A DNA stretch of 36,229 nucleotides from the NCBI GenBank assembly GCA_030628445.1, contig DAOVQV010000001.1:1-36229 (forward strand). Reading direction: 5' to 3'. Below, in pieces: positions 3,247 to 27,240 of this stretch. Made by a program: the position numbers and the translations under genes. Numbering within the stretch: position 1 is the stretch's first letter; every line of letters starts with the position of its first letter. This stretch comes from Phycisphaerae bacterium. Lineage in GTDB: Bacteria; Planctomycetota; Phycisphaerae; SM23-33. The notes under the pieces were generated by a model. The model was not told where the DNA came from. It saw only the letters and a program-made list of their open reading frames with translations, and ran no database searches.

Positions 3247-6200
3247 ATGGGTTGTTATATCGGGATAGACATAGGCGCGATAAGCGCGACGGGTGCGGTA
3301 CTAACCGACAAAGACCTCGGCGAATCGATCGCGCAGAGCCAGCTGCGCCTGCTCAGCCAGGCCGCCACAGGCAAGCGTTGGATATATCTCAGCGAATACC
3401 GCCGCACGCGCGGCAGACCCGTCGCCGCGGCCGTGTCCCTCATCCGGCAGATCGCCGCAGCCTTGGGCACAGAACCCGTAAGCGGAATCTGCCTGACCGG
3501 CAGCGGCGCCAAGCTCGTCGCAGGTAAGCTCCCCGCGGGTCTGGTCAACGAATTCAAGGCCATCGCCGCCGGTGCCGCCGCGGCGGGCCTGGAGGTGCAA
3601 ACCATCTTCGAGATGGGCGGGGAGACGTCCAAGTTTCTGCGATTCACTCGCAACGACGACGGGACGTTCGGGATAGTCGATTACGCCACCAACGGCGACT
3701 GCGCCGCGGGGACGGGCGCTTTTATCGATCAACAGGCGGGCAGACTTAGATTCGCCGTCGAGGACGTCGGGCGGATTTGCCTTTCGGCCGAGCGGACCGC
3801 CCAGGTCGCCGGGCGACGCAGCGTCTTCGCCAAGTCCGACATGATCCACGCCCAGCAGAAGGGCTACAATCCTCCTGAGGTGCTGCGGGGGTTGTGCGAC
3901 GCGGTGGCCAGAAACTTCCGCACCGCCGTCGTGCGGTCACATGCGGTCGTCCCGCCGGTGGCTCTTATCGGCGGTGTGGCTAACAACGCCGCGGTCGTCC
4001 GGGCCCTGCGCGAGGCGTTCGGCCTGGACGATTCGTCACTGATCGTCCCGTCCGCCTTTGCCCACATCCCGGCGATCGGAGCTGCTGTCGCCGCCGCCAC
4101 CAGCGACCAGACGCCCGACCCATCACGCATCGAACAACTCATCGCCGCAGGACACGCAGACGCTCCCGCCGCACCCGGGGCGAAGTTCCCCGTCACAGCC
4201 CCGCTGAGCATGGAAAACGTCATCCTGCTGCGAGATAGGGAGCTGCCCTACGAAACGCCGTCCTGGTCCGGGAAGATCGACGCCTATCTCGGGATCGACG
4301 TCGGGAGCGTCTCGACGAACCTGGCGCTTATCGACACCGAAGGTAGCGTAATAACGGAGATCTACACGCGCACAGAAGGCAGGCCCATCGAAGTGGTCAG
4401 CGACGCCCTGCGTGAGATTCGGCGCCGCTGCGGGCGGGATGTCAACATCCGCGGTGTCGGGACTACCGGGTCCGGCCGGGAGCTTATCGGCCGGCTCGTC
4501 GGGGCCGATACGATCAACGACGAGATTACCGCCCACAAGACCGGCGCGACCTTCATCGGCCAAAAAATGCTCGCCGGACGCGTCCCCGACACGATCTTCG
4601 AGATCGGCGGGCAGGATTCCAAGTACATCTCGCTGCAAGACGACATCGTGGTGGACTTTACGATGAACGAAGCCTGCGCCGCCGGGACTGGAAGCTTCTT
4701 GGAAGAACGGGCCGACGAACTCGATATTGCCATCATCGGCCAGTTCGCCGAACTTGCCCTGTCCTCCGACGCCCCGATCCGCCTGGGCGAACGGTGCACC
4801 GTGTTCATGGAGCGCGACGTGAACAGCTACATGCATCGCGGCGCCAACAAAGCGGACATCGTCGCCGGGCTCGCCTACTCGGTGGTTTACAACTACATCA
4901 ATCGCGTGGTGCGCGGGCGGAAGATCGGCGATACGATTTTCTTCCAGGGGGGCACGGCGTACAACGACGCGGTGGCGGCGGCCTTCGCTGCGGTTTGCGG
5001 TAAGCAGATAATCGTCCCGCCGCACAACGGCGTGATCGGCGCGATCGGCGCGGCGCTGTTGGCGCAAGATAAGATGAACGCACCGGCGAGTGCTGTCGTT
5101 GAATCCGACCCGGCCGCCGGCGTGTACGTCTCCGACAAACCCGGCGCAGAGCCCACCTCTCGCCGCTGCAAGTTCCGCGGGTACGACCTGTCGGCGGTTG
5201 ATTACACGCTGGAGGAGTTCGTCTGCAAAGGCTGCTCTAACTCCTGTCAGATACAGGTGTTTACGGTCGAAGGCGAAAAGACTTACTGGGGCGACAAGTG
5301 CTCGGACCGGTATCGCAAGCGCGTCAAGGCCACCAATAAGCCCGTCATAGAGGACCTTATTTCGCTGCGGGAAGGGCTGCTGCTTGATGAGACTCATTTA
5401 CCGCCCGTCGGCGCCGACGCCCTTACGGTCGGGATTCCGCTGACGATGTTCGCCATCGAGCAGCTTCCATTCTGGCGAACGCTGCTGGGGGCGTGCGGGT
5501 TCGCAACGGTGCTGTCCGATCCGACCAACAGCAGGACCATCAAGGCGGGGCTCGATACCGTCGTAGCCGAGCCGTGCTTCCCCATCATCGTAGCCCACGG
5601 GCACGTCGCCGACCTTCTCGCCCGTGACGATGTCGATTACGTCCTGATACCCAACATCATCTCCATGGCGACTCCCTGGGTCAACAACGAGTCGCACCTG
5701 TGCCCCTGGCACCAGACGCTCCCCTACGTCTGCAGGCGCGCGCCGGCGTTTGAGCCTCACGCCCATAAGTTCCTGGCCCCGACGGTGCACTTCAGGGAAG
5801 GCCCCAGGTACGTCTGCAAGCAGCTGCAGCGGGCTTTTAAGGAACTGGGGATAAGCGCGGATACCACGGCCGCGGCCGTCAAAGCGGGCTTCGAGGCCCA
5901 GGCCAAATTCCGCGCCCGCATCCTCGCCGAAGGCCGAGCCGCACTGGACGCCCTAGCCAAATCCGGCGCGCCGGGCATCGTCCTTCTGGGAAGACCCTAT
6001 AACATCCACGACGCCGGCGTGAACCTTTCGGTCGGGCGGAAGCTGAGGGACTATTACGGCGTCAACTGCCTCCCGATGGACTTCCTGGAAACGGACCCCG
6101 TCGATATCCGCGACGTGAACACCAACATGTACTGGGACCTGGGCAGGCGGATCATCGCCGCTTCAAAGCTCGTCGGCGCCAATGCGAACCTGCACATCAT

Positions 6201-6402
6201 CTACATCACGAATTTCAAGTGCGGACCCGATTCGTTCATCAAGCATTTCATCCGCACCGCCTCGGGTAAGCCATATCTGTCGCTGCAGTTCGACGGGCAC
6301 AGCAACGACGCGGGGATAATGACCCGCTGCGAGGCGTACCTGGACTCAAAGGGAATCCTGCGGCCGTGGCGAAAAGAAAAGCTCGCCGCAACGACTGCAT
6401 AA
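3247..6402 (+). CDS. Tandem BcrAD/BadFG (HgdC-type) activase ATPase fused to an acyl-CoA dehydratase activase-related C-terminal domain; PlsA/Ger-like
   Basis: Two ATPase modules are visible: YIGIDIGAIS...NGDCAAGTGAF (aa 1-~290) and YLGIDVGSVSTN...NEACAAGTGSF...ERCTVFMERD (aa ~345-610). A Cys-rich linker (CKFRGY...CKGCSNSCQIQ...GDKC) follows. The last ~350 aa (EPCFPIIVAHGH...NFKCGPDSF...LQFDGHSNDAG) are of the kind found fused to such activases (DUF2229/COG3581-like). Confidence 0.85.
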   Translation: MGCYIGIDIGAISATGAVLTDKDLGESIAQSQLRLLSQAATGKRWIYLSEYRRTRGRPVAAAVSLIRQIAAALGTEPVSGICLTGSGAKLVAGKLPAGLVNEFKAIAAGAAAAGLEVQTIFEMGGETSKFLRFTRNDDGTFGIVDYATNGDCAAGTGAFIDQQAGRLRFAVEDVGRICLSAERTAQVAGRRSVFAKSDMIHAQQKGYNPPEVLRGLCDAVARNFRTAVVRSHAVVPPVALIGGVANNAAVVRALREAFGLDDSSLIVPSAFAHIPAIGAAVAAATSDQTPDPSRIEQLIAAGHADAPAAPGAKFPVTAPLSMENVILLRDRELPYETPSWSGKIDAYLGIDVGSVSTNLALIDTEGSVITEIYTRTEGRPIEVVSDALREIRRRCGRDVNIRGVGTTGSGRELIGRLVGADTINDEITAHKTGATFIGQKMLAGRVPDTIFEIGGQDSKYISLQDDIVVDFTMNEACAAGTGSFLEERADELDIAIIGQFAELALSSDAPIRLGERCTVFMERDVNSYMHRGANKADIVAGLAYSVVYNYINRVVRGRKIGDTIFFQGGTAYNDAVAAAFAAVCGKQIIVPPHNGVIGAIGAALLAQDKMNAPASAVVESDPAAGVYVSDKPGAEPTSRRCKFRGYDLSAVDYTLEEFVCKGCSNSCQIQVFTVEGEKTYWGDKCSDRYRKRVKATNKPVIEDLISLREGLLLDETHLPPVGADALTVGIPLTMFAIEQLPFWRTLLGACGFATVLSDPTNSRTIKAGLDTVVAEPCFPIIVAHGHVADLLARDDVDYVLIPNIISMATPWVNNESHLCPWHQTLPYVCRRAPAFEPHAHKFLAPTVHFREGPRYVCKQLQRAFKELGISADTTAAAVKAGFEAQAKFRARILAEGRAALDALAKSGAPGIVLLGRPYNIHDAGVNLSVGRKLRDYYGVNCLPMDFLETDPVDIRDVNTNMYWDLGRRIIAASKLVGANANLHIIYITNFKCGPDSFIKHFIRTASGKPYLSLQFDGHSNDAGIMTRCEAYLDSKGILRPWRKEKLAATTA

Positions 6403-6424: not shown

Positions 6425-6453
6425 TTGCTAACCGTCGCCGGCGCCCCTATATT
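6425..6453 (+). promoter_or_regulatory. Candidate sigma70-type promoter for the oxidoreductase gene
   Basis: TTGCTA (6425-6430), 17-nt spacer, TATATT (6448-6453). It lies ~48 nt upstream of the ATG at 6501, which is preceded by AAGGAG. Confidence 0.4.
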
Positions 6454-6500
6454 TGCACGACGCCGAGCAAGACCGTCCGAGCCGCCCCAAGGAGCAGACC

Positions 6501-7688
6501 ATGCCGAAACGCAAAACGCTTAACGTCGCATTGATCGGGCAGGGATTCATGGGCCGGACCCATTCCAACGCATGGGCCCAGGTCTCAAAGTTCTTCGACC
6601 CACCACTGAAGCCTGCGATGCACACGGTCTGTGGCCAGGTAGGTGAGTCGCCGGACTTTGCCGACAACTGGGGTTGGGCGAACTGGAGCACCAACTGGCG
6701 CAAGGTGATCAGAAGCGACGAGATCGACATCGTGGACATCGCTACGCCAAACTACTTGCACGCGCCGATGGCCCAGGCCGCCATCAAGGCCGCCAAGGTG
6801 GTCTGCTGCGAAAAGCCCCTCGCCGGGACGCTATCGGATGCGCGGAAGATGGCGGCTTCGGCGAAAAACACCGGCGTCAAGACGTTCGTGTGGTACAACT
6901 ACCGCCGCTGCCCAGCCGTCGCCTTCGCCCACAAGCTCGTGAGGCGTGGTAAGGTCGGGCGAATCCGCCACGTGAGGGCCTTCTACCTGCAGGACTGGGC
7001 GGATGAATCCGTCCCGCTCGCCTGGCGGTTCCAGAAGCGATGGGCGGGGTCGGGCGCCCACGGCGACCTGAATGCTCACATCGTCGACATGATGCGGTTC
7101 GTCACCGGCGAGCAGATCACCGAGATCTGCGGCGCGATCGCCGAGACGTTCATCAAGAGACGCAAACGAATGATCGGTGCTGCAGCAGGCGGGATCGCGG
7201 CGGGCCTGAAGTCCTCACGAAAAACCGGTAAGGTTACGGTGGACGACACTGTCCTGTTCTTGGCGCGATTCAGCGGCGGTGCGGTCGGAAGCTTCGAGGC
7301 AGCCCGCCAGGCGACCGGAAACCAGAACCGAAACGGCTTCGAGATCAACGGAACCAAGGGAGCGATCCGGTTCAACTTCGAGCGGATGAACGAGTTGGAA
7401 TATTACGACGCCACAACGGACAGGGCGGTGCAGGGCTGGACGACGATCATCTGCACGCACGCGCCCGACCATCCGTACGTCGACGCATGGTGGCCCGACG
7501 CGCACCCGATCGGATACGAGCACGGGTTTGTCAACATGGCCTACGACGTGTTGCGGTCGGTCGCCGGTAAGAAGCCCACCGTCGAAATCCCCGACTTCGC
7601 CGACGCCTACCAGACCCAGCGGGTCCTGGAGGCGGCGTTGATCTCGGGGACAAAGAGGCGGACAGTGAAGCTCTCTGCCGTTCGCTAG
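6501..7688 (+). CDS. Gfo/Idh/MocA family NAD(P)-dependent oxidoreductase
   Basis: The internal ATG at 6501 is preceded by AAGGAGCAGACC. The N-terminal Rossmann motif is LNVALIGQGFMGRTHSNAW. The EKP motif (VCCEKPLA) and a C-terminal alpha/beta domain typical of the family are present. Confidence 0.88.
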   Translation: MPKRKTLNVALIGQGFMGRTHSNAWAQVSKFFDPPLKPAMHTVCGQVGESPDFADNWGWANWSTNWRKVIRSDEIDIVDIATPNYLHAPMAQAAIKAAKVVCCEKPLAGTLSDARKMAASAKNTGVKTFVWYNYRRCPAVAFAHKLVRRGKVGRIRHVRAFYLQDWADESVPLAWRFQKRWAGSGAHGDLNAHIVDMMRFVTGEQITEICGAIAETFIKRRKRMIGAAAGGIAAGLKSSRKTGKVTVDDTVLFLARFSGGAVGSFEAARQATGNQNRNGFEINGTKGAIRFNFERMNELEYYDATTDRAVQGWTTIICTHAPDHPYVDAWWPDAHPIGYEHGFVNMAYDVLRSVAGKKPTVEIPDFADAYQTQRVLEAALISGTKRRTVKLSAVR

Positions 7689-13630: not shown

Positions 13631-13670
13631 CGAACGGCCCAGCAGTAACGAACGGAATTTGGAATCATAC

Positions 13671-13701: not shown

Positions 13702-13730
13702 CAGCGCGGTGTGATACCTTGTGTCTATCG

Positions 13731-14759
13731 ATGATGCAACGCCTGAATCAATTCGACCGGCGCCTCCTGGGGATGCTGGAAGGCGGGCTCGCCCTTGTCC
13801 GCGAGCCCTACGCGCACATCGCCGCCCAGCTAGGCTGTCCGCAGCAGAAGGTGCTTGACCGCATACCATCCCTGCGCGGCGATGACGGTCTGATTCGCCG
13901 GATTACGGGGATATTCCACGCCGCGGGTCTCGGATACACCCAATCGCTCGTGGCGATGAAGATCGCACCGGATCAGCTCGACGCAGCCGGCGCCAAGGCG
14001 GCCGGGCATCCGGGCGTCTCGCACTGCTATGGGCGCGACGATCAGTTCAATCTCTGGTTCACCCTTGCGGTCTCGCCAAGAAGCGCCCTGGGCCTCGACA
14101 CAACCGTCGAGCTGCTGTGCGAGCTATGCAAGGGGCGGGCCACGATGACGCTCCCGGCGACCAGGCAGTACAAACTCAACGTCCGTTTCGCTGCGCCGAC
14201 CGGGCCGGCGGCGGCGCCACTCGCCCCCGCCCGGTCAAGTCCGGGTCGACCCGCTGAACCCACAGCACAGCAGATCATCGCAATCCACGCGCTTCAGGAG
14301 GACCTACCGGCACGGGGCGACCCCTTCGCGCCGCTGGCGGACAGTGTGGGTCTGGACCCCGACACGCTCCTGGTCCACGCAGCCGATTTTCTGACCGCAG
14401 GTTGGATGCGGCGATATGCAGCCATCCTCCACCACCGCGCCGCCGGCGCCAAAGCAAACGTGCTGGTCGCCTGGTGCGTGGACGAGCAGTCCGCCGACAG
14501 GGCTGGGCGGATATGCGCCGCGGACCCATCCGTCAGCCACTGCTACCTCCGCACGGCCGGGCAGGACTGGGCCTACAACCTTTACGCAATGATCCACGCC
14601 CCCGGCCGCGCCGAAGCCCAAAGAACGATCGGTCAACTTTCGGCAGCGCTAGGCGAGCCCGAACGGGCCCAACTGTGGACACTGAAAGAATACACCAAAC
14701 GCCGAATCCGCCTGTTTACCGACGCCGAATGCAAATGGGAAACGAGGCACGGGACGTAA
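13731..14759 (+). CDS. Fused AhbA/AhbB (NirD/L-type) siroheme decarboxylase-like protein
   Basis: The start is taken at ATGATG 13731 (MMQRLNQFDRRLL). There are two tandem Lrp/AsnC-like halves, each with the HTH-like N-part and the signature GVSHCYGRDD..NLWF / SVSHCYLRTA...NLYAM seen in AhbA/B and NirD/L/G/H proteins. Confidence 0.8.
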   Translation: MMQRLNQFDRRLLGMLEGGLALVREPYAHIAAQLGCPQQKVLDRIPSLRGDDGLIRRITGIFHAAGLGYTQSLVAMKIAPDQLDAAGAKAAGHPGVSHCYGRDDQFNLWFTLAVSPRSALGLDTTVELLCELCKGRATMTLPATRQYKLNVRFAAPTGPAAAPLAPARSSPGRPAEPTAQQIIAIHALQEDLPARGDPFAPLADSVGLDPDTLLVHAADFLTAGWMRRYAAILHHRAAGAKANVLVAWCVDEQSADRAGRICAADPSVSHCYLRTAGQDWAYNLYAMIHAPGRAEAQRTIGQLSAALGEPERAQLWTLKEYTKRRIRLFTDAECKWETRHGT

Positions 14760-14771
14760 AGAGCCGCGATC

Positions 14772-16469
14772 TTACCCCACACCGCGCCCAGTGCAGCTCA
14801 GCTCGAGCTGATCGGGAGTGCTCTGGGACTCCTGGACCGCCACGCCGTCCGCGACTAATTTATCCCAGTGTTTCTGGTTGAAGATGCATCCGGGATCGCC
14901 GGCGTGAAGTTGACCGAAGTATGCATCGGCCCTGGCCCGGCAACCCCCGCAGTAACACCGCAGGGCGCAGACCTCGCAGTGATGCAGGCGATCGTCCCGA
15001 TCGTTGAGGACCTCCCACAGATCGCTGTTGCGGAAGATATCAACCAGCGGCGCTTCTCGCACGTTACCCATCACGCGGTGCGGTAGGTACACGCATGGGG
15101 TAACGTCGCCGTTGGGCTCTATGCAGACGTAGGTCCGCCCGGCCCCGCACCCGCCGAGGTACTTCGCCACCACGCGGGCCTTGACCCCGCTGCCACTGCC
15201 GGCGTGAGAGCAGGCGACCCGTCCGACGCCCGCGGGGGCGCCGAGCAGACAGATCCGCCCCAACTGCGGGGCCGTCGAGATAATACCGATGCGCCCCTCC
15301 TGCATCTTCGCATTGAGCACCGCCAAAAGCTGCTCGCGCTGGGACGGCGTGATGTCGTCGTGGACCATCTTGGCGCCCCTCCCGACCGGAATGAAATTGA
15401 AATGCGCGAAGCAGCTCGCCCCGATCCGCTCGGCGAAGGCGATCATGTCGCCAAGCTCGTGGAAGTTCCCCCGGTGCACGCACATTGCGATCCCCAGCCG
15501 CAACCCCTCGGTCGCCACGACGGTCTTCGCCCCCCAAACCGCGCGGGCCCACATACCCGCAACGCCCCGAAACGCGTCATGGCGGTCCGGATCCACCGAA
15601 TCCAGCGAGATCTCCACGTATCGCAGCCCGGCCTCGACAAGCTTATTAGCCAAGGCCGGCGTCATGGTCGTCCCGTTAGTGGCGATCGTCGTGTGGATGT
15701 CGTAGCGCTGCGCGCGGCGCAGGACCGGCAGCAAGTCGCCGCTTAGAGTCGGCTCGCCCCCGGACAGAGCGAGCATCGGGACGTAAACGCGGCCCATCTG
15801 ATCGACAACCGACAGCTTCTCATCCAGCGCCAACTCATCCGCCGGAGGATTGGTGGTGCTGTCCTGGTAGCAGTGCTTGCAGGTGAGGTTGCAGCGATTC
15901 GTTAGGTTCCAGACGGCGAACAGCGGCGCCGTAAACCGCTGCGGGCAGGTTAACCCGAACTCGGCGATGCTGCGGGCGACAATCACAAGCCCGCGAACGG
16001 TCGGGGCGTGCCCGGCGAGGCGCCGGCGAAAAGTTGGTGCATCCACGTCACCCCGCATGTAATCGATGAAGCGATGAAACAGCCAATACTTGATGCGCTC
16101 GGCGCGGCGGGCGGAGGGATTTCGATAGCTGGCGATGATCCGCTCCAGCGAGGTCGGAGCATCGCCATCGTCTTGCGCCAATTTGCCCAGGACCCAGCGA
16201 ACCTCACTGCGGCCCAGCCAGTCCTCCAGCCAGTGGTGATAGTGAAGCCCCAACGAGCCCGCGGCTGCGCGGCCACCATTACGAACACCGCGTATATATT
16301 CGCCGCTGCTGAGCTCGCCGTCTTGGGTTCGATAGGGGCTCTTGTCGGAATTATCGAACCTTGGGTGGGACTGCTCGCGCCGGGCGGGCGAGGCGGCGCA
16401 AGAGTGCATAGCTGCGGTGACATAAGAGACGTCCGCGCGGTCCCATTTACTGGGGTCTGTCTGTCCCAT
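14772..16469 (-). CDS. Radical SAM/SPASM enzyme of the NirJ/AhbC/AhbD family with an N-terminal extension
   Basis: The CxxxCxxC motif lies in LFAVWNLTNRCNLTCKHCYQD (aa 193-200). Other family motifs are SGGEPTL, FNFIPVGRGAKM, STAPQLGRIC and GGCGAGRTYVCIEPNGDVTPCVY. The SPASM-type tail is HHCEVCALRCYCGGCRARADAY...DPGC. The start lies 6 nt after the upstream lipoprotein stop. Confidence 0.82.
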   Translation of the reverse strand: MGQTDPSKWDRADVSYVTAAMHSCAASPARREQSHPRFDNSDKSPYRTQDGELSSGEYIRGVRNGGRAAAGSLGLHYHHWLEDWLGRSEVRWVLGKLAQDDGDAPTSLERIIASYRNPSARRAERIKYWLFHRFIDYMRGDVDAPTFRRRLAGHAPTVRGLVIVARSIAEFGLTCPQRFTAPLFAVWNLTNRCNLTCKHCYQDSTTNPPADELALDEKLSVVDQMGRVYVPMLALSGGEPTLSGDLLPVLRRAQRYDIHTTIATNGTTMTPALANKLVEAGLRYVEISLDSVDPDRHDAFRGVAGMWARAVWGAKTVVATEGLRLGIAMCVHRGNFHELGDMIAFAERIGASCFAHFNFIPVGRGAKMVHDDITPSQREQLLAVLNAKMQEGRIGIISTAPQLGRICLLGAPAGVGRVACSHAGSGSGVKARVVAKYLGGCGAGRTYVCIEPNGDVTPCVYLPHRVMGNVREAPLVDIFRNSDLWEVLNDRDDRLHHCEVCALRCYCGGCRARADAYFGQLHAGDPGCIFNQKHWDKLVADGVAVQESQSTPDQLELSCTGRGVG

Positions 16470-16475
16470 CGGCCG

Positions 16476-16961
16476 CTATGGTATGCGACCCGTGATGGTT
16501 ATTTCAACGCCCGCCTCCGGGCCGGGCAGCCCGTTTATCACCCCGGCGACGCGAAGCCGCTCGCCTGTGGGCCAATTTGGCTCGACGGTCAGGTTCAACG
16601 GAAACCGTCTGGCCGCACCCGGCGCCAGCGTCCAGGTGCCAACGACCATCATTTCCGCCTTCGGATAATGCAGCAGTTCCTCCCAGCCTATCCCGTCGTG
16701 GCGGTATATCAGAACGTAGACCGGGCTGGCGGACCTGGCGGTGATGGTGATGGGGTCCTTGCCCTGGTTCTGGGCTGTAATGCGCACGGGGAACGTCTCG
16801 CCGACGGCGAATTGCCTCTTGGACACCTCTATACCGAGCACCAGCCCGCCCGATCGGACGATATCGAACTCGCCGCTGTACCAAAGCTCCTGAGCGGTCC
16901 GCCCCTTACACCCTGACAGACCGGCAGCCAGAAGAACCAACAAGGAGGTAAAGCACCTCAT
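16476..16961 (-). CDS. Small lipoprotein, predicted beta-sandwich (function unknown)
   Basis: The signal peptide has a lipobox: MRCFTSLLVLLAAGLSGC. The rest alternates hydrophobic and polar residues as beta strands do. The gene sits directly between the two radical SAM genes (0 and 6 nt gaps). Confidence 0.7.
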   Translation of the reverse strand: MRCFTSLLVLLAAGLSGCKGRTAQELWYSGEFDIVRSGGLVLGIEVSKRQFAVGETFPVRITAQNQGKDPITITARSASPVYVLIYRHDGIGWEELLHYPKAEMMVVGTWTLAPGAARRFPLNLTVEPNWPTGERLRVAGVINGLPGPEAGVEITITGRIP

Positions 16962-18914
16962 CTATTCACCCTCCGCCACGCCCTCCGCTTGCGTGATTCG
17001 TCCCTGCGACACATACCGACCGCTGCCGGTTAAGCTGCGCTCGACGAAGTCGCGATACCCCGGCCCGCAGTTATGGGTGCAGAACGGCAAGATCCCCAGC
17101 GGCGTCGAATACTGAATCACGCATCGTTTGGCGCGCTCGACGTCGAAATTGTAGCGGTCCTGAAAATGCATCCCCGCACACATCAGCGTCCTGTAGGTAT
17201 ACTGCTCGCCTGCCCCGCGGCCGATGTCCTTGTCCAGCAACCCCCAGAGCGATCGGATGAACCGCTTGACGGTAAGCCCCGCCGGAGCAGCCTTGGGGCG
17301 GAAGTGGCGTTTGAACATCCGCACGGTACGCCACTTATCCCCCCACGTCGCCCTGCCCCTGCGGCGAATGCGGGCGGCGATACGATTCATATCGGTAAAC
17401 ATCCCCTCGATGTTGACTACGGCCGGGAAGGGGTAAACCGCTCCGTCGGGCGAGACGAGCAAGTACGTCCCGAATGCACAATCCGGATGGGGGCTCGGGC
17501 GGACCTTGGGCTTACCGGTCAGGGCCTCGATTATCTGAGCAAGCGGTAAGACGACCGACAGCGGGAACATATCCCGCAGCGGACTGGCGCCGGTCGCTTC
17601 GGCGATATCGCCGGCCAGGTCGCCCAGCGTATAGCGTCGCGCGACCCGTTCGGCCTCATCGATCCGCCCGGAGAAGGAGACCGGCTGGAAGCTTATCGCG
17701 CTGATCACGTCAATGTTGGCGACCGCAAAGCGGATGATCTCGCCGACGCGATCGTCGTTTATGCCCTTTAGGATCGTGGGGACCAGACAGATCTTCATGC
17801 CGGTTCGACGAGCGTTCTCCAAGCAGGCGAGCTTGATTTTCCAAATGCCCGGAAAATTGCGCGTCCGGCGGTAGGCGGCCTCGCCGACGCCGTCAAACTG
17901 CAGATATAGCACGTGCACGCCGGCCTCGGCGCAGCGCCGGGCGTAGTGAGCGTCCGCAAGCTTCAGGCCGTTCGTGGCGACCTGAATGTGCGAGAAGCCC
18001 ATCCGCCGCGCTTGGGCGACTATCCGCAGGAAATCCGGATGGACCGTAGGTTCGCCGCCGGTGAACTGGACCGCCGTGCACGGAACAGGCCGCATGTCCC
18101 GCAGGACCTGCAACTGCCGGACGACCTCGTCGTAGTCGGGTTCGTAGACGTACCCCTTGACCCCGGAGTTGGCGAAGCAGATCGGGCAGCGCATGTTGCA
18201 GCGGTTGGTCAGGTCGATCTGGGCCAGGCAGGCGCCGGAAAGATGCTGGTCGCACAGCCCGCAGTCGGAAGGACAGTGCCTCCCGCCGCTGATTTGCGGT
18301 TCGAGCACACCCGGTTGCTCCTCGAACGTCCAGAACGCGGCCTTCGAATAGAGCAACACGTCGGTGTTGATGCAATCGCGGACGTAACCGTGGTCGGGGC
18401 AGGTCTTCTCGATATAGACGGCGGAGTTTTCGACGAAGTATCGCCCCAGGACGATGGCCCCGCAGACCGGGCAGAGCGTCTCGACGGTTCGCGGAAGGCG
18501 GCGCAGGACAGGGCGAATGCGCGAGCCCGCGAAAGTATGCCCGGGCGAGCCGGCGAAGTCGCTGCGCCGGACGGTCCAGATGTTGTCGTGATGAACTTCC
18601 CGCTTCGGCCCGCAGGCGGGGCACGAGAAAGTCAAGACGATCTGCTTCCCGAGCCGATCGAACACACCCCGGACAACCTCGCCGCAACCCGGGCAGGTCG
18701 CTTGCGTGTGAACCGGTAAGGTCCGATACTGATCGGCGAAACGGCGCATGGATTCCCTGAACTGCTGCAACTCACCCGGTACGTCCGACCCGACCGGCGG
18801 GGGCTCGTAGATGCCCCCGGGTGATGTGTGAGGGCCACTGCTGTTGTGCTGGACGCGCTCGATCATATCCCGATCAACTCCAACTCGGCCGGGTTCCTGA
18901 CCGCAAAAAATCAC
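16962..18914 (-). CDS. Radical SAM enzyme with duplicated N-terminal zinc-ribbon, Tes / GDGT-MAS (MJ0619-type) family-like
   Basis: Two zinc-ribbon units are present: ATCPGCGEVVRG...FSCPACGP and TLCPVCGAIVLGRYF...YIEKTCPDHGY. They are followed by HCPSDCGLCDQHLSGAC, the radical SAM site IDLTNRCNMRCPICFANSG, FTGGEPTVHPDF and the C-terminal MCAGMHFQDRYNFDVERAKRCVIQY...LPFCTHNCGP. The GTG start overlaps the upstream TGA (GTGA at 18911-18914). An alternative ATG lies at 18866. Confidence 0.7.
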   Translation of the reverse strand: MIFCGQEPGRVGVDRDMIERVQHNSSGPHTSPGGIYEPPPVGSDVPGELQQFRESMRRFADQYRTLPVHTQATCPGCGEVVRGVFDRLGKQIVLTFSCPACGPKREVHHDNIWTVRRSDFAGSPGHTFAGSRIRPVLRRLPRTVETLCPVCGAIVLGRYFVENSAVYIEKTCPDHGYVRDCINTDVLLYSKAAFWTFEEQPGVLEPQISGGRHCPSDCGLCDQHLSGACLAQIDLTNRCNMRCPICFANSGVKGYVYEPDYDEVVRQLQVLRDMRPVPCTAVQFTGGEPTVHPDFLRIVAQARRMGFSHIQVATNGLKLADAHYARRCAEAGVHVLYLQFDGVGEAAYRRTRNFPGIWKIKLACLENARRTGMKICLVPTILKGINDDRVGEIIRFAVANIDVISAISFQPVSFSGRIDEAERVARRYTLGDLAGDIAEATGASPLRDMFPLSVVLPLAQIIEALTGKPKVRPSPHPDCAFGTYLLVSPDGAVYPFPAVVNIEGMFTDMNRIAARIRRRGRATWGDKWRTVRMFKRHFRPKAAPAGLTVKRFIRSLWGLLDKDIGRGAGEQYTYRTLMCAGMHFQDRYNFDVERAKRCVIQYSTPLGILPFCTHNCGPGYRDFVERSLTGSGRYVSQGRITQAEGVAEGE

Positions 18915-20200
18915 TCATCAAAACACGCGGGGTAGCGCCGCTTTGTTTGCTTGCGCTTTCGATAGCTGCTCGCAAGCTCCATGAAGATATCCAGGTCTCG
19001 CTCCATGTTGGAGCTGGTCGCGTCGAAGTAGAAATTGCGGATCGGGATCTCATCATGATCTCGCCCGACGGCGTGGTAGAGGGCCTCGCAGACGATCCCA
19101 TTCATGCATGAGAAGGGACTTATGTCGATGATCCCGTCGGCGCCCTTGCGGTGCAGGTAGATAGTCTTCCCTATCGACAGGACCATTTCCCCCAGCGCCC
19201 CGTCGGCCGGGAGGTAGGGCCACCCCGGCTCGAGGACCTCCTTGTAGATATCGTGCGGTTCTTCGTATCCGAAGAAATCGGCCCCGAAAGGTTCAAGCAG
19301 CTTCTGTTCGTCCCGCTTCTGGACGGCGTTTTTGAGGACGGCCGCGAGCATCCCCAGCGACAGCGTCCTACCGTCGCGCTTCAGCAGCGACTTTTGCGAC
19401 CAGTTGGTGTACCAGACCCATTCGCAGACGTCCGACATCCAGGCCTCCCCGCCGTGGGCCTCGATCCGCCGAACCGCATCATAGTTGCTGAACGTGTTAA
19501 GCCTGCAGAAGATCTCCCCGACCACGCCTATCAACGGCCGGTCCTTACTGTATTCGGCGGGCACGGCCCTGAATAGGTCACGCGATTCTCTCAAGGCCCC
19601 CACGAGCTGACGGAAGCGCACGGGAAACTTCACCTCCGGCGCCTCCATGACCCGCTCGACAAGCTGCATGCTTTGCTCGAAGGCCTCATCGGCGGCACCT
19701 GAGATGGTCTCGTACGGGCGGGTCTTGAGCAGCAACTTCCGCAGGATGTCCGAGGCGACCAGGCCGGACCACAGAGCGCGAATTACCCGCGAGCCGTACT
19801 TGCCCAGCCCGTCGTAACTGTTCTTACTGGTCGGGCAGATTACCGGGATATCCCCGTAGCCCAGCTCGGCGAGGACCTGGCGAAGATACGGGGCGTACTG
19901 GCCGAAGCGGCACGGGCCCTCGGCCGTGGGCATGAAAAAGGCTGTGCGGTCCGGGTCGAACCCGTCAGAGTTAACGATCCGCAGGAAATCGCCCAGCGTG
20001 ACCTTCTCGGGGTAGCACTCTTCCCCGGAGCTATAGAGCCCGCCGAACTCCAACGTTTGCTCGTCCGACGGCGGGGTCACGCGCGCCTCAAGCCCCGCGG
20101 AACGAAAGACCGCGGCCATCATCCGCGCTCCGACGTAGGTCATCCGCGGGATCCACAACGTCCGTCCCGCCAAGCGATCCATCACCGAATGCGAAGTCAT
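18911..20200 (-). CDS. Acyl-CoA dehydratase activase-related protein (COG3580/3581-type), PlsR-like
   Basis: Motifs include TLWIPRMTYVGARMMAAVFRSAGLEA, LYSSGEECYPEKVTLGDFL, PTAEGPCRFGQY, IGVVGEIFCR and ISPFSCMNGIV. These fit the partner proteins that accompany HgdC-type activases and resemble the C-terminal third of the 3247..6402 product. Confidence 0.72.
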   Translation of the reverse strand: MTSHSVMDRLAGRTLWIPRMTYVGARMMAAVFRSAGLEARVTPPSDEQTLEFGGLYSSGEECYPEKVTLGDFLRIVNSDGFDPDRTAFFMPTAEGPCRFGQYAPYLRQVLAELGYGDIPVICPTSKNSYDGLGKYGSRVIRALWSGLVASDILRKLLLKTRPYETISGAADEAFEQSMQLVERVMEAPEVKFPVRFRQLVGALRESRDLFRAVPAEYSKDRPLIGVVGEIFCRLNTFSNYDAVRRIEAHGGEAWMSDVCEWVWYTNWSQKSLLKRDGRTLSLGMLAAVLKNAVQKRDEQKLLEPFGADFFGYEEPHDIYKEVLEPGWPYLPADGALGEMVLSIGKTIYLHRKGADGIIDISPFSCMNGIVCEALYHAVGRDHDEIPIRNFYFDATSSNMERDLDIFMELASSYRKRKQTKRRYPACFDE

Positions 20201-20294
20201 GTTGTTGGTCCCTCGGGCATAGCGAGTTCGTAAGATACCGCAAGCGATGGGCTTTGAAAAGTGCGTGTTTGCGAAGTTACCCGCCGTCCAAGAC

Positions 20295-20366
20295 AGCCAG
20301 CGGAGGGATTCGAACCCACAACCCCCGCTTTACAAAAGCGGTGCTCTACCGTTGAGCTACGCTGGC
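20295..20366 (-). tRNA. tRNA-Thr (anticodon UGU)
   Basis: The reverse complement is GCCAGCGTAGCTCAACGGTAGAGCACCGCTTTTGTAAAGCGGGGGTTGTGGGTTCGAATCCCTCCGCTGGCT. It folds into a 7-bp acceptor stem, a GCTC/GAGC D-stem, a CCGCT/AGCGG anticodon stem with loop TTTGTAA (anticodon TGT), and a TTCGAAT T-loop. The T-stem has one U-U mismatch. No CCA is encoded. Confidence 0.87.
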
Positions 20367-20415
20367 GTCTGTTTCCAATGTACCGAAGGGGCGTTGGGAA
20401 TTCTAGACGTCAATC

Positions 20416-20439
20416 AAAAGCGTTCGGCCCCAGGGCCGA
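20416..20439 (-). terminator. Candidate intrinsic terminator after the exosortase/EPS operon
   Basis: On the minus strand: stem TCGGCC/GGCCGA with a 4-nt loop (20424-20439), followed by ACGC TTTT GATT. It lies ~20 nt after the Wzc-like stop. Confidence 0.4.
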
Positions 20440-20459
20440 CGTTATGAGTGGGCGAGTTG

Positions 20460-22715
20460 CTACTGCTTGGTTGTCCGGGCCGACTTGGCGGGCGGTTGGG
20501 CGGGGGCGGCGGGGAGCTGCTCCTGCTCGTGGTACTCGTAGAACGTCTCGTAGCTCCGACGATAATATCCGCCTGCGGTGACGCGAACGCCGTTGACGAC
20601 AACGCCTACGATATGTGCGCCGACCCTCGTAAGCATATCCCGGGTCCGCTCGACGATCCCGTACGTATTCGCCCCCGCTCGAACGACAAGGATCACGCCG
20701 TCGACGAGGCTGCTCAAGACGGACGAATCGGAGACCACCAGTCCGGGCGCTCCGTCAAAGAAAACCTGTTCGAATTGGTCGGTCATCTCGGAAATGATGT
20801 TGCGCATCTGATCGGACCCGAGCAGCTCGGCGGGATTCGGCGGCAGGACGCCGGACGACATCAGGAACAAGTCCTTGTCGACCTCTTTTGCAAGATCGCG
20901 CCAGTTGGCCTGGCCGGATAGCACGCTGCTTAGCCCGGCTTCGGGGATCTCGGGGAAGAGCTTTCGGATAACAGGCTGGCGGAAATTGGTGTCCACAACC
21001 AGCACTTTCCTGCCGGCTTGCGCCACCGATCCGGCGAGGTTCAGCGTAACGGTGCTGCGGCCGTCTTCGGGCATCGGGCTGGTAACCAGCAAGCTCCGCC
21101 GCCCGGAAGGGGGCCCGCTGAACAGCAAGCACGTTCGGATTCGCCGGAACGACTCGCTGATCAGGGAGTTGGGATTCGTCATGAACGTCAGGCGCAGATC
21201 TTCGATTTCCTCATCCACATCATCCAAATGAGGCACCATACCAAGCGCAGCTAGGTCTATCCGCCTGGTGATGTCCCCGGGAGACTTAACGGAGGTATCG
21301 ATGACTTCCAGCAGAAATGCCAGTCCCACACCCACCACGATCCCCAAAAAGACCCCCAGCGGAACCATGACCTTCCACTTCGGCATGGAGGGCTTGCGGG
21401 GTTTTGCGGCTTGGCGTCGCAGGAATACCGGCCTTTCGCCGCGGTACAGCAACCTGTAGTCCAGCTCCTTTGTCTTGATCTTGTTTATCTGCTCCTCCAG
21501 GGCCTCCTCCTGGGCGGCAAGTTGCTTCAGTTGCGCCAGATTTGCCTGGGCGTCGTTCAGCCTGGCCATGAGGGCCTCATATCTATCCTCAACCTGCTTC
21601 CTTTGCGCCCCGAGAGTTTCAATATTGCCTTGGTGGAACTGCTTGACGCCCTCCGCGGCGTTCTTCGCCAGCTCATCCTCTTGTCTCTTCATCTGCTCCG
21701 CGACACTGTCCAGGCGGTTTTCCAGAGTCCTAACCCTCCTGTGCTGCGGGCCGAACTTGGCCAGAGCGTCGTCCAGTTCGGTGCGGAGATTCACCTGGGC
21801 ATGGCGCAGCGATGCGAACGTTGGATTGGCATCGACGGCCGCGCGTACCGGGGCCGAGCTGATCAGCGTACCGGCACGTTCCTGTTCCAAGATCTTGTCG
21901 TAAGCGGACTGCTCTTCGGCCAGACCAAGGTCCAATTCTGTGCGCGCAACCACGAGACCTTGCAATTGGACATTCAGGACGTTGCGCTGATCCTCGATGT
22001 TGGGGATGTCTTCCGGCCTCATCTCGGACATTGCTCTTCGAATCGCATCCAGGTCTGACTGGAGGGTACGTCGTTCGTCGCTCAGTCGGTCAAGCTGCTC
22101 AACGCGGTCATCCTTGACGCTCTTGGTGTTGTCTTCGACAAAGGCGTTGGCGACGGCATTGATGATGTCGGCGAGTTCGGCCCGTTCTTTGTTCGTGCTT
22201 GCCCTCTCGGTCATTGCGATGCGGACGAAGAAGGTATCCGGGACCGAGGCCACCTTAAGGGCATCGTACAATTCCTGAATGACGTCGCCGCTGGAATACC
22301 GGCGGTACCATTTCGTCCTGTTGAGCAGCGGGTCCTCCGTCGCCGCCGCAAGGACTGCGTCCGATTTGATCAGTTGTGCCTGCGACCGGGTCAGCCGGTC
22401 CATGATCTGCTTGCTGGGCAGTTGTGCCGTATCGACCATGGCACTTGGTTTGGGCGGGTTGATCTGCAGATAGGCCTCGGCGGTGTAAAACGGCGCGTAA
22501 AGCAGCCACAGGATCGTCGCGCCACATGCGATCCCGGCACCGATCAATATCGACAGTATGATCAACCATTTGTGCTTGAGGAAGATACGGACAACGTCTC
22601 GGCCGGTCATGCCGCCGGCTCCGACGGGCGCGCGGGCCATACGGCCCAGCCCCCCCGGCGCCTGTGCGGCACGGACGATCTGAGGAGTACGATCTTGCGT
22701 CGGTACAACGGTCAC
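20460..22715 (-). CDS. Polysaccharide co-polymerase / BY-kinase (Wzc/EpsG-like) with a degenerate Walker A
   Basis: The N-terminal Wzz-like domain has two TM helices flanking a long coiled-coil periplasmic region. The C-terminal P-loop domain has Walker A position SPMPEDGRST, Walker A' VLVVDTNFRQP and a Walker B-like FFDGAPG. The C-terminal Tyr cluster is GGYYRRSYETFYEYHEQ. Confidence 0.87.
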   Translation of the reverse strand: MTVVPTQDRTPQIVRAAQAPGGLGRMARAPVGAGGMTGRDVVRIFLKHKWLIILSILIGAGIACGATILWLLYAPFYTAEAYLQINPPKPSAMVDTAQLPSKQIMDRLTRSQAQLIKSDAVLAAATEDPLLNRTKWYRRYSSGDVIQELYDALKVASVPDTFFVRIAMTERASTNKERAELADIINAVANAFVEDNTKSVKDDRVEQLDRLSDERRTLQSDLDAIRRAMSEMRPEDIPNIEDQRNVLNVQLQGLVVARTELDLGLAEEQSAYDKILEQERAGTLISSAPVRAAVDANPTFASLRHAQVNLRTELDDALAKFGPQHRRVRTLENRLDSVAEQMKRQEDELAKNAAEGVKQFHQGNIETLGAQRKQVEDRYEALMARLNDAQANLAQLKQLAAQEEALEEQINKIKTKELDYRLLYRGERPVFLRRQAAKPRKPSMPKWKVMVPLGVFLGIVVGVGLAFLLEVIDTSVKSPGDITRRIDLAALGMVPHLDDVDEEIEDLRLTFMTNPNSLISESFRRIRTCLLFSGPPSGRRSLLVTSPMPEDGRSTVTLNLAGSVAQAGRKVLVVDTNFRQPVIRKLFPEIPEAGLSSVLSGQANWRDLAKEVDKDLFLMSSGVLPPNPAELLGSDQMRNIISEMTDQFEQVFFDGAPGLVVSDSSVLSSLVDGVILVVRAGANTYGIVERTRDMLTRVGAHIVGVVVNGVRVTAGGYYRRSYETFYEYHEQEQLPAAPAQPPAKSARTTKQ

Positions 22716-22719
22716 TTAC

Positions 22720-25700
22720 TCACTCCCGGCCGATATCCGCTCGAACGCGGCCAATCGCTTCGGTTATGCTCTTCTTGAGCGTATCTTCTTCGGGGCGGTC
22801 CGCAACAAGCTCCAAGGCAAGCTGGTACTGATGCAGCGCCTGGCCGTACTGCCTCGTCTGCTCGTAGACCCACCCAAGATGATATCGGTTATCCGGGATG
22901 GGTTGGCCTATCTGCAACGATCTCAGCAATTGTCTCTTGGCCTCGTCGTACTGCCCAAGCTTCGCCAGCGTCCATCCGTAGGTATCAATCACGTTTTGAT
23001 CGCCGGGGCGCAAATCCAAGGCGCGCTTCGCAAGAGGTTCCGCCTTTTGCGGCTCGTCTAATTCATCGACATATATGTATGCCAAGTTGTTTAACGCGGC
23101 CATTTCGTCGGGGCGGATTTCAAGCACCGCCAGATACACCTTCTCGGAGTCCTTCCACTGACGCATCTGGGCGTAGGTGATTCCAAGTTCGGAATTGATG
23201 GTGACCACCGCCTGAGGCTCATCGGTCAGTTCAAGCGCCTTGTGGTAGGCGATGATCGCCGCGGAGTAATTCGGTCTGCGCTTTTGGAGTTCAGCCTTTT
23301 TGCACATGGCGCCCAGCCGGAAATAGATATTCCAATCACCCCTGCGGTCGGCCCAGCGATTGATCTTCTGCGGCGCAAGGGCCAGCCCATAGGCCAGTTC
23401 CGCCTGAGCCAGGACGGGCCCTAGTTGGTTGGGGGTGGCAGTTTGCACGGCAGTTATGAATAGCTGTTCAGCTTCGGTGGATTTTCCCTTCTTCGCCAGA
23501 GCGGCGGCGCGGTGGGCCTTTATCACCGCCGCCCATTCGGGTTCGTCTTCATACCTCCCGGCGATGCGTATCACGTCATCATACTTTCCGGCCTCCAGTA
23601 AGGCCGTCATGTATCCAGTAACAACCGGTCGCGAGCGCGGCGCCATCTCCACGGCCTTGGCGTACGCACTCATTTGCCTGACCAAGTCATTACGCGCGCG
23701 CCACATCTGGGCCTCATGCAACACCAGCATGACGTTATCGGGGAAAAGCCTTCTACCCGACCGAAGTTGCGATTCCATCTGATCCCATTTGCCCTGCTGG
23801 AGGTACAACGAGACCAACTGTTCGCCCGCCCGTTCGTGGCGGGGGTTGTCCCTCAGGATATCGCGATAGACCTGTTCCGCCTGCGTCAACTCGCCAAGGG
23901 TCCGACACACAGCGGCCAAGTCCATTGACAACGCGACGGCATCCGACAGCTGCAGCGACTTCTGCAGATCTTCTTTGGCCCGGGCAAACTCCCCGCGCTC
24001 GACGCGCAGCTTCGTGCGATACCTCAGCGGCAACAGCGAATCCGGGTTCATTTCGATCGCACGGTCAAAGAGGCTTTCCGCCTTCGACAGTTGCCTCTGC
24101 TTCCAGGCGATGATGCCCTTCAGCGTCAGGCCATGTGCGTCGGTTGAGTCAGCGGACAGGATGGCGTCTATCCGCTTCGCCGCCTCGTCGGTCTTACCGG
24201 ATTCTATCAGGTACAGGATCAAGTCTTTCCGGGCGTTTTCGGGGTTAGGGGGATTCAGTTGCAGGTAGGTTTCCATAGCCCCCACCGCTTCGGCCCAACG
24301 TTGCTGCTTCGCCAGGTACTGCGCCTTGGCAAGATACCCATCGGGCAGGTTTGGATCGCTTTCGATGGCCTTGCCAAGAGCCGCCAAGGCCTGTTCGAGG
24401 CTGTAGAACTGCAGGGAAGTGCTCCAGGCGATCCATATCTTGGCCTTATCGGCGGGCGTTTGGGCTTTTGTCAGAAGCTCCGAGAAGATCTTGTCCACCA
24501 GGGAAGATTTTTGGGCTCTGATGTAGTACTCCGCCAGCAACTTTGCGGCCCCGATCTTGTCGGATGCGTTGTCGTAAATGTAGCGATACGTCTTCTCGGC
24601 CTGGCCAAATCGTTCCATTCGCTCGTACAAAACCGCCAGATGGTAACGATTGATCAAATCGTTCGGCTGGCGCTTTGCTATCCTTTCCCGCTTGGGGATT
24701 ATCTTCGCGGCGATGGTCTCGTCAGTGGCGTTCTTCTCCTCGTAATTGAGGTAGCTTTGGCTGACGTAAGGGTTTCGGCGGCTCAAGGGCAACTGATAAG
24801 CCCGGCGAATCCATCTCTCGTGCTCTTGCCATTTGTTCTGTCGCTCTGCCACGCGCGCCAGTCCGATTATGGCAGCGGCGAAGCCGGGGTCTCTTCGTTC
24901 GGCTTCGGCGTAGGATTCTCGGGCCCTCACAAATTGCTCGGTCGCCAGGTAGCACTGACCGATCGCAACCCAGGCTGTCTTAAGCTCAGGCCGCCTCGCC
25001 AAGAGCTCCTGCAGCGCTGCAATTGCCGATTCGTACTCGCCCTTGGCCTGGGCCAGCCGAATTCGCACACCGGCACCTTCCAGACCGTCGACATCGGCCT
25101 CGGCCGCCTTCTCGGCGTATTGCTCCGCCAGCGGCCAGTCCTTCTGACGGGTGGCGTAGGTGAACATCTGCTGAATCAGGACCGGTGAATCCGGATCGAG
25201 CCGTTCGGCTTCTCGCAGGTAAGTCAGCTCTCGCCGGGCATTGCCGACAATCGCGCACGCATTGGCTTTCGTCAGTGCAGCTGACAACAGATCGTCGGCG
25301 AACTTCTTGTCGACCCTCTCCAGAAGCATCTCGAAGCGCTTTTCGGGATCGGTCTCACCCAGCCTCGCCATCTCAAAGTCAATATCTTCGTTTTCCCCAA
25401 GGCGAGCCCTTGCTGCTGCAAGGAGCTTCACCGCCTCGTCCCGTCTGCCGTCGGATGCGTACATCCTGGCCAGCTGCACGACTACCGGGACATTTTCGGG
25501 CGCCTTTTCGTACAGTTCCACCAGAAGTCCTATCGCCTGATCGCGCTGTTCCTCGGCCCACAGCCTCTGCGCCCGGTCCAACAGGACCGCCATAGCTTGA
25601 CGGCCCACCTTTCCTTCCACCAACCCCTCCGGCGCAGCGGCGGAAGCTTCAAGGACGGCTTTGAGCTGAAGGGCCTCGGGATTGTTCGGATCGATCCTCA

Positions 25701-27213: not shown

Positions 27214-27240
27214 TTGTATCCTCAGGTTTTCACTAGTTCT

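Follow-up and report, generated by a model that had tools for sequence, protein, structure and literature searches.

In a Phycisphaerae genome (assembly GCA_030628445.1, contig DAOVQV010000001.1, positions 1 to 36,229; this whole stretch of 36,229 nt is called the window), a gene for a PlsR-like protein is packed together with genes for a radical SAM enzyme of the tetraether synthase (Tes) family, a small lipoprotein and a second radical SAM enzyme resembling Gms. Known here from its genes alone, this operon probably converts glycerolipids with ester-linked fatty acids into membrane-spanning lipids with ether links, of the branched glycerol dialkyl glycerol tetraether (brGDGT) and branched glycerol monoalkyl glycerol tetraether (brGMGT) kind. 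The strongest evidence for a shared pathway is that three families, PlsA, PlsR and Tes, are joined in two gene orders in at least four phyla. An earlier sequence-only reading of the window had drawn attention to a PlsR-type and a Tes-type gene in one operon, with a PlsA/Ger-like gene in the neighbourhood, as a likely ether or membrane-spanning lipid module. The present analysis supports that proposal, and the operon is larger than the pair first noted, including the lipoprotein gene and the Gms-like radical SAM gene.

The window has a G+C content of about 62% throughout, and the nearest named relatives of the PlsR-like and Tes-like proteins come from metagenome-assembled genomes (MAGs) of Phycisphaerae or Planctomycetota. 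Both open reading frames (ORFs) of the pair, 429 aa and 650 aa, are present as described. On the minus strand, from 20200 to 14772, four closely packed ORFs follow one another in the order plsR-like, tes-like, lipoprotein, gms-like. The genes of main concern are the following.

18911..20200 (-): plsR-like gene, 429 aa; predicted stand-alone second catalytic half, HAD beta-like, of an ATP-driven glycerolipid ester reductase of the PlsA/PlsR/Ger type
16962..18866 (-): tes-like gene, 634 aa from the ATG at 18866; assigned by homology to the tetraether synthase/GDGT-MAS family
16962..18914 (-): the same tes-like ORF in the ORF-finder alternative, 650 aa from the GTG at 18914
16476..16961 (-): lipoprotein gene, 161 aa; signal peptide and LSGC lipobox, packed between the tes-like and gms-like genes
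14772..16469 (-): gms-like gene, 565 aa, closing the operon; AhbD-like radical SAM/SPASM protein extended at its N-terminus by about 185 aa
3247..6402 (+): plsA/Ger-like gene, 1051 aa; two HgdC-type activator ATPase domains and DUF2229, the predicted first catalytic half
6453..7688 (+): GFO/IDH/MocA-type oxidoreductase, directly 3' of plsA

Conservation and structure of the operon

Scanning one genome for each GTDB species with a Tes alignment yielded 80 loci, almost all from MAGs of Phycisphaerae or other Planctomycetota. Neighbouring genes were called by tblastn with the window proteins and counted over loci with at least 1.4 kb upstream for plsR, at least 2.5 kb downstream for the lipoprotein and gms-like genes, and at least 4.7 kb upstream for plsA. 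A plsR-like gene stands directly upstream of tes, on the same strand, in 64/66 loci. Downstream, an orthologue of the radical SAM/SPASM gene is found in 57/60 loci, usually after the small lipoprotein gene, which itself follows tes in 49/60. The complete order plsA-plsR-tes-lipoprotein-gms, with plsA directly upstream of plsR, occurs in 7 of 49 loci, and plsA is present anywhere in the locus in 10 of the 49. Where plsA adjoins plsR-tes, its product is 55-65% identical to that of the window, like the divergence of PlsR and Tes in those loci; because the two divergences match, the 3247..6402 product is regarded as the orthologous partner of PlsR. The form in which plsR lies directly 3' of plsA, or is fused to it, is absent from the window; the two genes are adjacent in these 7 loci as well as in more distant relatives.

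The same families recur outside Planctomycetota. A metagenome scan seeded on the Tes of a Bryobacteraceae genome gave 80 loci, 37 of them with at least 4.5 kb downstream of tes. In 7 of the 37, plsA (51-52% identity to the window's) and then plsR (50-52%) come after tes on the same strand; one further locus carries the tes and plsA/plsR units divergently, and a gms-like gene follows tes in two metagenome loci. Four assigned loci illustrate the arrangements.

Gemmatimonadota, GCA_042564305.1 (L168): tes-DHH-plsA-plsR
Vicinamibacterales (Acidobacteriota), GCA_041890195.1 (L169): tes-plsA-plsR-radical SAM
Candidatus (Ca.) Glassbacteria (L170): tes-DHH-plsA-plsR
Ca. Eiseniibacteriota (L171): tes and, after it, a LolA-like gene; plsAR absent

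The gene between tes and plsA in the Gemmatimonadota (8735-9727) and Ca. Glassbacteria (4749-5750) loci encodes a DHH-family phosphoesterase. A radical SAM gene of 358 aa follows plsR in Vicinamibacterales (13252-14328), and the LolA-like gene of Ca. Eiseniibacteriota (8662-9372) overlaps the tes stop. The pair singled out from the window is therefore conserved, and the objection that it might be absent from relatives falls away, because it is kept in 64/66 loci and recurs, in another gene order, in three further phyla.

Some loci depart from the common plan. At L078, plsA-plsR is kept upstream of tes, and the lipoprotein and gms genes are missing. Two contigs of MAG SMAG_U14157 (L021 and L057) each bear a plsR-tes-lipoprotein cluster, representing either paralogous copies or a mixed bin. 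Those tes loci that have no plsR carry the most divergent Tes homologues; one belongs to a Bryobacteraceae genome and another lies among unrelated genes.

The junction between plsR and tes had been read as a GTGA overlap that argues for co-translation. The overlap is in the sequence, with the GTG at 18914-18912 sharing bases with the plsR TGA at 18913-18911 (context ...GAT GAG TGA), but this GTG is probably not the real start of tes. The NCBI gene call for the product is 634 aa long and begins with MIERVQ at the ATG at 18866 (P0121); MIE is also the N-terminus of the consensus of 11 Tes orthologues, and MIER... appears in many orthologous loci. Since tes likely starts at this ATG, 44 nt downstream of plsR, translational coupling through GTGA is unsupported. 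How far the first in-frame tes ATG lies from the plsR stop varies among the 80 related loci, mostly 0 to ~130 nt by a crude estimate, with a TAGATG abutment or an ATGA overlap in a few of them. The spacing is thus always short, yet because it varies from locus to locus the overlap is not a conserved feature. Promoter and terminator scans of 14400-20700 gave matches at or below shuffled-sequence expectation and are uninformative either way; for this reason the case for co-transcription of the plsR-like, tes-like, lipoprotein and gms-like genes comes from gene spacing, which makes it plausible.

Features of the encoded proteins

An exhaustive phmmer search with the 429-aa protein found 2,343 relatives. 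Residues ~10-418 align with residues ~1000-1420 of proteins of ~1,400 aa (35-40% identity, E ~1e-73) that carry two BcrAD_BadFG domains and DUF2229 N-terminal to the aligned region. Two BcrAD_BadFG domains, DUF2229 and a C-terminal module make up the described architecture of single-chain PlsA and Ger (PMC13159169, PMC12838417). Stand-alone relatives (52%, 49% and 37% identity) are encoded immediately 3' of, and overlapping, a BcrAD_BadFG plus DUF2229 gene of ~1,026-1,030 aa, and the two-gene plsA-plsR form is that of Clostridium perfringens (PMC12838417). Three cysteines, C62 (20015-20017), C97 (19910-19912) and C365 (19106-19108), are invariant or near-invariant across 124 diverse family members.

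Structure prediction points the same way. An AlphaFold2 model built on a 32-sequence alignment reached a mean pLDDT (predicted local distance difference test) of 90.2, and its top 11 fold matches in the PDB, at a probability of 1.0 each, were all catalytic subunits of the BCR/HAD/double-cubane type, among them DCCP and subunits of HadB/C (2-hydroxyisocaproyl-CoA dehydratase), BzdNO and MbdON (benzoyl-CoA reductase). In the predicted structure, the protein therefore combines a BCR/HAD catalytic-subunit fold with three cluster cysteines. A PDB search by sequence gave no match. The earlier suggestion that this protein and the C-terminal third of the 3247..6402 product share one kind of domain found no backing in BLASTP (E 0.065, not significant) or in Pfam and NCBIfam scans, but was borne out by hhalign, in which the 429-aa family and the DUF2229 third of PlsA matched over 309 columns (probability 97%, E 8.5e-11) with the three conserved cysteines in register. 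Because phmmer, fold and profile comparison with the PlsA half agree, the 429-aa protein is identified, from its sequence and modelled fold, as a stand-alone PlsR-type module and a paralogous second catalytic half, standing to PlsA as HgdB stands to HgdA. The PlsR assignment made from the sequence is thus upheld by homology to the C-terminal module of BcrAD_BadFG x2 plus DUF2229 proteins, by the plsA-plsR operons and by the BCR/HAD-like fold.

Its separation from plsA raises another reading, in which the PlsR-like protein no longer works with PlsA and has been recruited as a direct partner of Tes, for instance as an Fe-S relay for electrons or a subunit presenting lipids. In the Planctomycetota clade, plsR does stand apart from plsA and is tightly bound to tes. 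In a rough neighbour-joining tree without support values, moreover, the Tes-linked PlsR proteins of all the phyla described above form one cluster, apart from the fused forms, although this clustering is only suggestive. Such recruitment is nevertheless highly improbable: the residues invariant across the whole family are unchanged, the three cysteines included; orthologous plsA (55-65% identity) persists and is adjacent in 7/49 loci; and GDGT-MAS needs no such partner in vitro (PMC9433317).

The partner expected under the preferred reading, the 1,051-aa product of 3247..6402, has two activator ATPase domains and DUF2229 in Pfam and NCBIfam scans, and the ATPase domains resemble solved HgdC-type activators. 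The oxidoreductase gene at 6453-7688 (+) begins 51 nt 3' of plsA, and levoglucosan dehydrogenase is what its product matches best, with 342 bits where the cut-off is 650. An orthologue (70% identity) lies convergently right after the gms-like gene in L001 and L049, so that the gene travels with the cluster in some genomes. Its membership in the module is uncertain.

The Tes-like protein scores 470.6 bits with NF045702 ("tetraether lipid synthase Tes"), above the equivalog cut-off of 450 and over model positions 3-481 of 486. It also matches the chain of GDGT-MAS from Methanocaldococcus jannaschii in PDB entry 7TOL_A (E 6e-107, query aa 130-616 against chain positions 11-494), with 38% identity across 482 aa. 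The quoted motifs (two ribbons, CPxDCGLCxxH, CNMRCPIC and FQDRYNFD...RC...PFCTHNC) were all found in the sequence. Compared with the cofactor sites described for GDGT-MAS (PMC9433317), they are placed as follows, with amino-acid positions counted on the 650-aa ORF.

18612..18695 (-): extra N-terminal CX2C...CX2C zinc ribbon, aa 74-101
18390..18473 (-): rubredoxin-type CX2CX20CX2H (Pfam Zn_ribbon_HMPTM), aa 148-175
18243..18275 (-): CX3CX2CX2H, N-terminal auxiliary [4Fe-4S] ligands of GDGT-MAS, CPSDCGLCDQH, aa 214-224
18177..18200 (-): radical SAM CX3CX2C, CNMRCPIC, aa 239-246
17067..17171 (-): C-terminal auxiliary-cluster region, MHFQDRYNFD...RC...PFCTHNC, aa 582-616

All four GDGT-MAS metal sites are kept and are invariant across five bacterial homologues and MJ0619. 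The C-terminal region supplies the RC and PFC cysteines, and in it MHF aligns to the labile Met439 and IQY to Tyr459 of GDGT-MAS. The protein also has an N-terminal leader of ~130 aa with an extra CX2C...CX2C ribbon; this ribbon is invariant among Phycisphaerae orthologues, and in the alignment it is missing from MJ0619 and from the Bryobacteraceae homologue. Longer leaders occur in the most divergent Planctomycetota Tes proteins (51-53% identity), encoded at 9665-11866 in L079 and 9743-11797 in L078. The NF045702 score, the 7TOL match and the full set of cofactor ligands support the earlier assignment of the 650-aa ORF: by homology, the 16962..18866 product is a member of the Tes/GDGT-MAS family, with tail-to-tail C-C coupling as its predicted activity.

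A non-lipid function for this protein, as a 7,8-dihydro-6-hydroxymethylpterin dimethyltransferase (the older annotation) or a member of the TrsS selenoprotein family, is hardly credible. The pterin methyltransferase label survives in the JGI names of some homologues, and TrsS comes second among the NCBIfam matches, with 295.7 bits. That score lies well under the TrsS cut-off of 490, however, whereas that of the Tes equivalog is exceeded; structure and enzymology moved MJ0619 itself from the pterin annotation to GDGT-MAS (PMC9433317), and the neighbouring genes are lipid-related.

The 161-aa protein encoded after tes has a signal peptide and an LSGC lipobox, features that are near-universal in its orthologues. 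It has no family match, and a single-sequence structure model is all-beta at low confidence (pLDDT 56.8).

In the 565-aa product of the last gene, Pfam places Radical_SAM and SPASM domains. Among NCBIfam models it scores highest with NirJ2 (223 bits) and AhbD (216.5 bits, model positions 3-338 of 339), far under the cut-offs of 500 for AhbD, 650 for AhbC and 500 for NirJ2; it thus has an AhbD-like radical SAM/SPASM core without being a true AhbD. The N-terminal extension of ~185 aa, which has no Pfam match, is conserved from aa ~79 in a homologue beside an acidobacterial-type tes, and the identity is 69% in L001. A PDB sequence search returned generic radical SAM matches and no Gms or AhbD structure. 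Gms (earlier Hbs), the GMGT bridge synthase, has been described as a homologue of AhbD, extended at the N-terminus by a lipid-binding stretch of ~100 aa (COG4001 domain), and gms homologues of Planctomycetes and Acidobacteria were reported to cluster with tes (PMC11214058). By architecture, context and literature, the 565-aa protein is Gms-like, the characterised Gms being known here by description.

Directly beyond the gms-like gene, convergent and 12 nt away, lies a gene for a fused AhbA+AhbB siroheme decarboxylase (13344-14759, +) that passes both NCBIfam cut-offs. The fusion implies a siroheme-dependent haem pathway in the organism; the annotated GTG start of its gene is probably placed too far upstream, as the match to AhbA does not begin before aa 138. 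This neighbour, which recurs in 10 of the 80 related loci, together with the NirJ2 and AhbD matches and the near-complete coverage of the AhbD model, is what would favour reading the 565-aa protein as a haem-pathway enzyme of the AhbD, AhbC or NirJ kind, which would make the operon one of mixed functions and weaken the lipid interpretation. This alternative is quite improbable. The scores fall far below the relevant cut-offs; the long N-terminal extension, conserved beside an acidobacterial-type tes, is of the kind that separates Gms/Hbs from AhbD; the gms-like gene follows tes in 57/60 loci, while the AhbA/AhbB fusion is found in only 10/80; and published trees group the tes-linked homologues of Planctomycetes with Gms (PMC11214058). 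The label "GrsA homologue" reported for Phycisphaerae was also considered for the 565-aa protein and rejected, because the Grs proteins (GDGT ring synthases) are B12-binding radical SAM enzymes (PMC13459092), whereas this protein has a SPASM domain and no B12-binding domain.

Proposed pathway and competing explanations

In the PlsA/PlsR family, HgdC-type ATPases inject a low-potential electron into an Fe-S catalytic pair. In the proposed pathway, the two fused HgdC-type ATPase domains of the PlsA-like protein would use ATP to push such an electron into a catalytic pair formed by the PlsA DUF2229 domain and the separate PlsR-like protein, paralogous halves with three conserved cysteines each for an Fe-S cluster. 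The putative PlsA-PlsR pair would then reduce glycerol acyl esters to alkyl or alkenyl ethers, as PlsA/PlsR and Ger do. The Tes-like enzyme would join the lipid tails, the Gms-like enzyme may add a mid-chain bridge, and the lipoprotein may handle the product in the envelope. A fatty-acid-derived substrate and a brGDGT-like product, instead of an archaeal-type GDGT, are favoured because the linkage is to an ester reductase and not to prenyltransferases.

The background for these steps comes from several characterised systems. PlsA/PlsR turn the sn-1 acyl ester of diacyl lipids into a vinyl ether under anoxic conditions (PMC9702350), and Ger, a PlsA homologue, forms saturated alkyl ethers (PMC13159169). 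GDGT-MAS links two terminal sp3 carbons by way of a substrate-cluster intermediate, and ester lipids are also bound by it (PMC9433317). Bacterial Tes homologues have been reported and proposed to act in brGDGT synthesis (PMC8941075), and a route to brGDGTs in which PlsAR is followed by Tes and then Grs was proposed for Solibacter usitatus (PMC10087280). Homologues of Tes, "GrsA", Gms, Mss and Ger were reported in Planctomycetota including Phycisphaerae, for which the choice between brGDGT-like and archaeal-type GDGT lipids was left open (PMC11868695). Joint presence of Tes and Ger goes with brGDGT production and Tes alone with tetraesters, according to Chen et al. 2025 as cited in PMC13023045.

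A more specific version of the proposal is advanced tentatively, as a possibility falling somewhat short of probable. Here the plsA/plsR-tes(-lipoprotein-gms) set would constitute a self-contained anaerobic module for brGDGTs and bridged brGMGTs in Phycisphaerae, Gemmatimonadota, Vicinamibacterales and Ca. Glassbacteria, outside the cultured Acidobacteria, and the Tes-linked PlsAR subfamily would reduce esters on present or future membrane-spanning lipids.

Several observations weigh against the shared-pathway interpretation. In the window, plsA lies outside the operon, 12.5 kb off and on the opposite strand, and most related loci have no plsA within 10 kb. Three distant Tes homologues (48-51% identity) lack plsR upstream, among them that of L079, a locus with neither plsR nor plsA in its 10-kb flanks and none of the partner genes nearby, and most acidobacterial-type tes loci are without plsAR in the vicinity. 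The 429-aa protein had no match in Pfam and NCBIfam scans taken up to E 10, neither collection having a model for PlsR, and its likeness to C. perfringens PlsR (Q8XL48) and to Ger of Thermotoga maritima is a likeness of module architecture as described. The argument for co-transcription comes from spacing, and the gms-like gene stands back to back with a bona fide AhbA/AhbB gene, which keeps a haem-synthesis role as a minor rival.

The scattered position of plsA, which usually lies outside the operon, and the many tes loci without plsAR nearby would also suit an explanation in which two separate lipid functions are tied together by regulation. PlsA/PlsR would then make plasmalogens or monoalkyl ethers, Tes would make ester-bound membrane-spanning lipids of the diabolic-acid type, and the operon would be shared on account of both being oxygen-sensitive membrane-remodelling enzymes, not on account of one product. 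Iso-diabolic tetraesters have been reported to accompany Tes alone (Chen et al. 2025, as cited in PMC13023045), and the binding of ester-linked phosphatidic acid by GDGT-MAS (PMC9433317) fits this explanation as well. It is nonetheless unlikely, since plsR, useless without plsA, is the one kept alone beside tes in 64/66 loci, and since full plsA-plsR-tes and tes-plsA-plsR clusters are found in different phyla.

Relation to known systems and genomic surroundings

The Tes-like protein shares with Tes/GDGT-MAS (M. jannaschii MJ0619, 7TOL/7TOM, NF045702) full-length homology, the metal sites, the labile Met and the conserved Tyr. It differs in its bacterial host, in the ~130-aa leader with the extra ribbon and in an expected fatty-acid-derived substrate in place of archaeol. 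With PlsA/PlsR of C. perfringens (CPE1194/1195) and Ger of T. maritima (Tmari_0479), the proteins of the window have in common two HgdC-type activator domains, DUF2229 and a catalytic module of ~400 aa, and the split sizes also agree with those of PlsA (~1030-1050 aa) and PlsR (~400-430 aa). Two activator domains are the pattern reported for alkyl-ether formers such as Ger (PMC13159169, PMC13274423) and are present here, although sequence does not predict which of the two ethers, vinyl or alkyl, is made (PMC13274423). Unlike in PlsA/PlsR, the plsR gene of the window is uncoupled from plsA and placed before tes; the distance to plsA, on the other strand, is 12.5 kb.

The tes-gms (hbs) clusters of Planctomycetes and Acidobacteria (Garcia et al. 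2024, PMC11214058) likewise have tes followed by an extended AhbD-like radical SAM/SPASM gene; here plsR, sometimes plsA, and a lipoprotein gene belong to the cluster as well. The text and preprint of PMC11214058 contain no mention of plsA, plsR or ger. The Mss plus Ger route of Thermotoga and Bacillota (PMC13159169, PMC13274423) follows the same logic, combining a radical SAM tail coupler with a PlsA-type ester-to-ether enzyme, but the coupler of the window is a Tes homologue and not Mss, and a shared operon for Mss and Ger was not described in the literature searched. The sequence-only reading had knowledge of no characterised operon of this composition. The underlying idea is less new than it supposed (PMC10087280, PMC11214058, PMC11868695), but the linkage itself, plsA/plsR adjoining tes, had no mention in the literature searched, with the supplement gene-cluster figure of PMC11214058 and subscription-only papers outside the search. 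The families and the hypothesis are thus known, and what is new is the rather strong genomic-context support and the unusual split that keeps plsR with tes.

As proxies for continental palaeotemperature and pH, brGDGTs rank among the most widely used, and their producers and enzymes are still unsettled. Debate concerns both the coupling enzymes (Mss versus Tes homologues) and the ether routes (Ger/PlsAR, ElbD), and is mostly argued from co-occurrence in the same genome. A physically conserved operon of a PlsAR-type subunit with Tes is far stronger evidence by association, and the association returns, with the genes ordered differently, in three or more further phyla. As the product of bacterial Tes, it favours a tetraether that is ester-derived and based on fatty acids over an isoprenoid lipid of archaeal type, and for sediments and euxinic waters it singles out anaerobic Phycisphaerae as sources. 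The set of four to five genes is small enough for a direct heterologous test; if the module is indeed self-contained, four or five genes in a suitable host would suffice for these palaeoclimate biomarkers. A specialist would not be greatly surprised, but a long-standing open question can now be put to a direct test.

The remaining genes of the window fall into distinct blocks. Between the plsA and tes units, 7801-13048 (+) encodes a DUF4140/DUF4139 protein, two NfeD proteins and a FloA flotillin, forming a membrane-microdomain gene block. Directly upstream of plsR, 20460-31045 (-) is an exopolysaccharide/exosortase block that includes the following genes.

20460-22715 (-): Wzc-like tyrosine autokinase; a Wzc-like gene is found in 11/80 related loci
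22720-27213 (-): PrsT-like TPR protein, 1,497 aa
28128-29153 (-): exosortase
29153-31045 (-): polysaccharide export protein

Housekeeping genes lie towards both ends of the window, namely one for the phenylalanyl-tRNA synthetase beta chain (600-2660, +) and one for a fused SecD/SecF protein of 1,250 aa (31490-35242, -).

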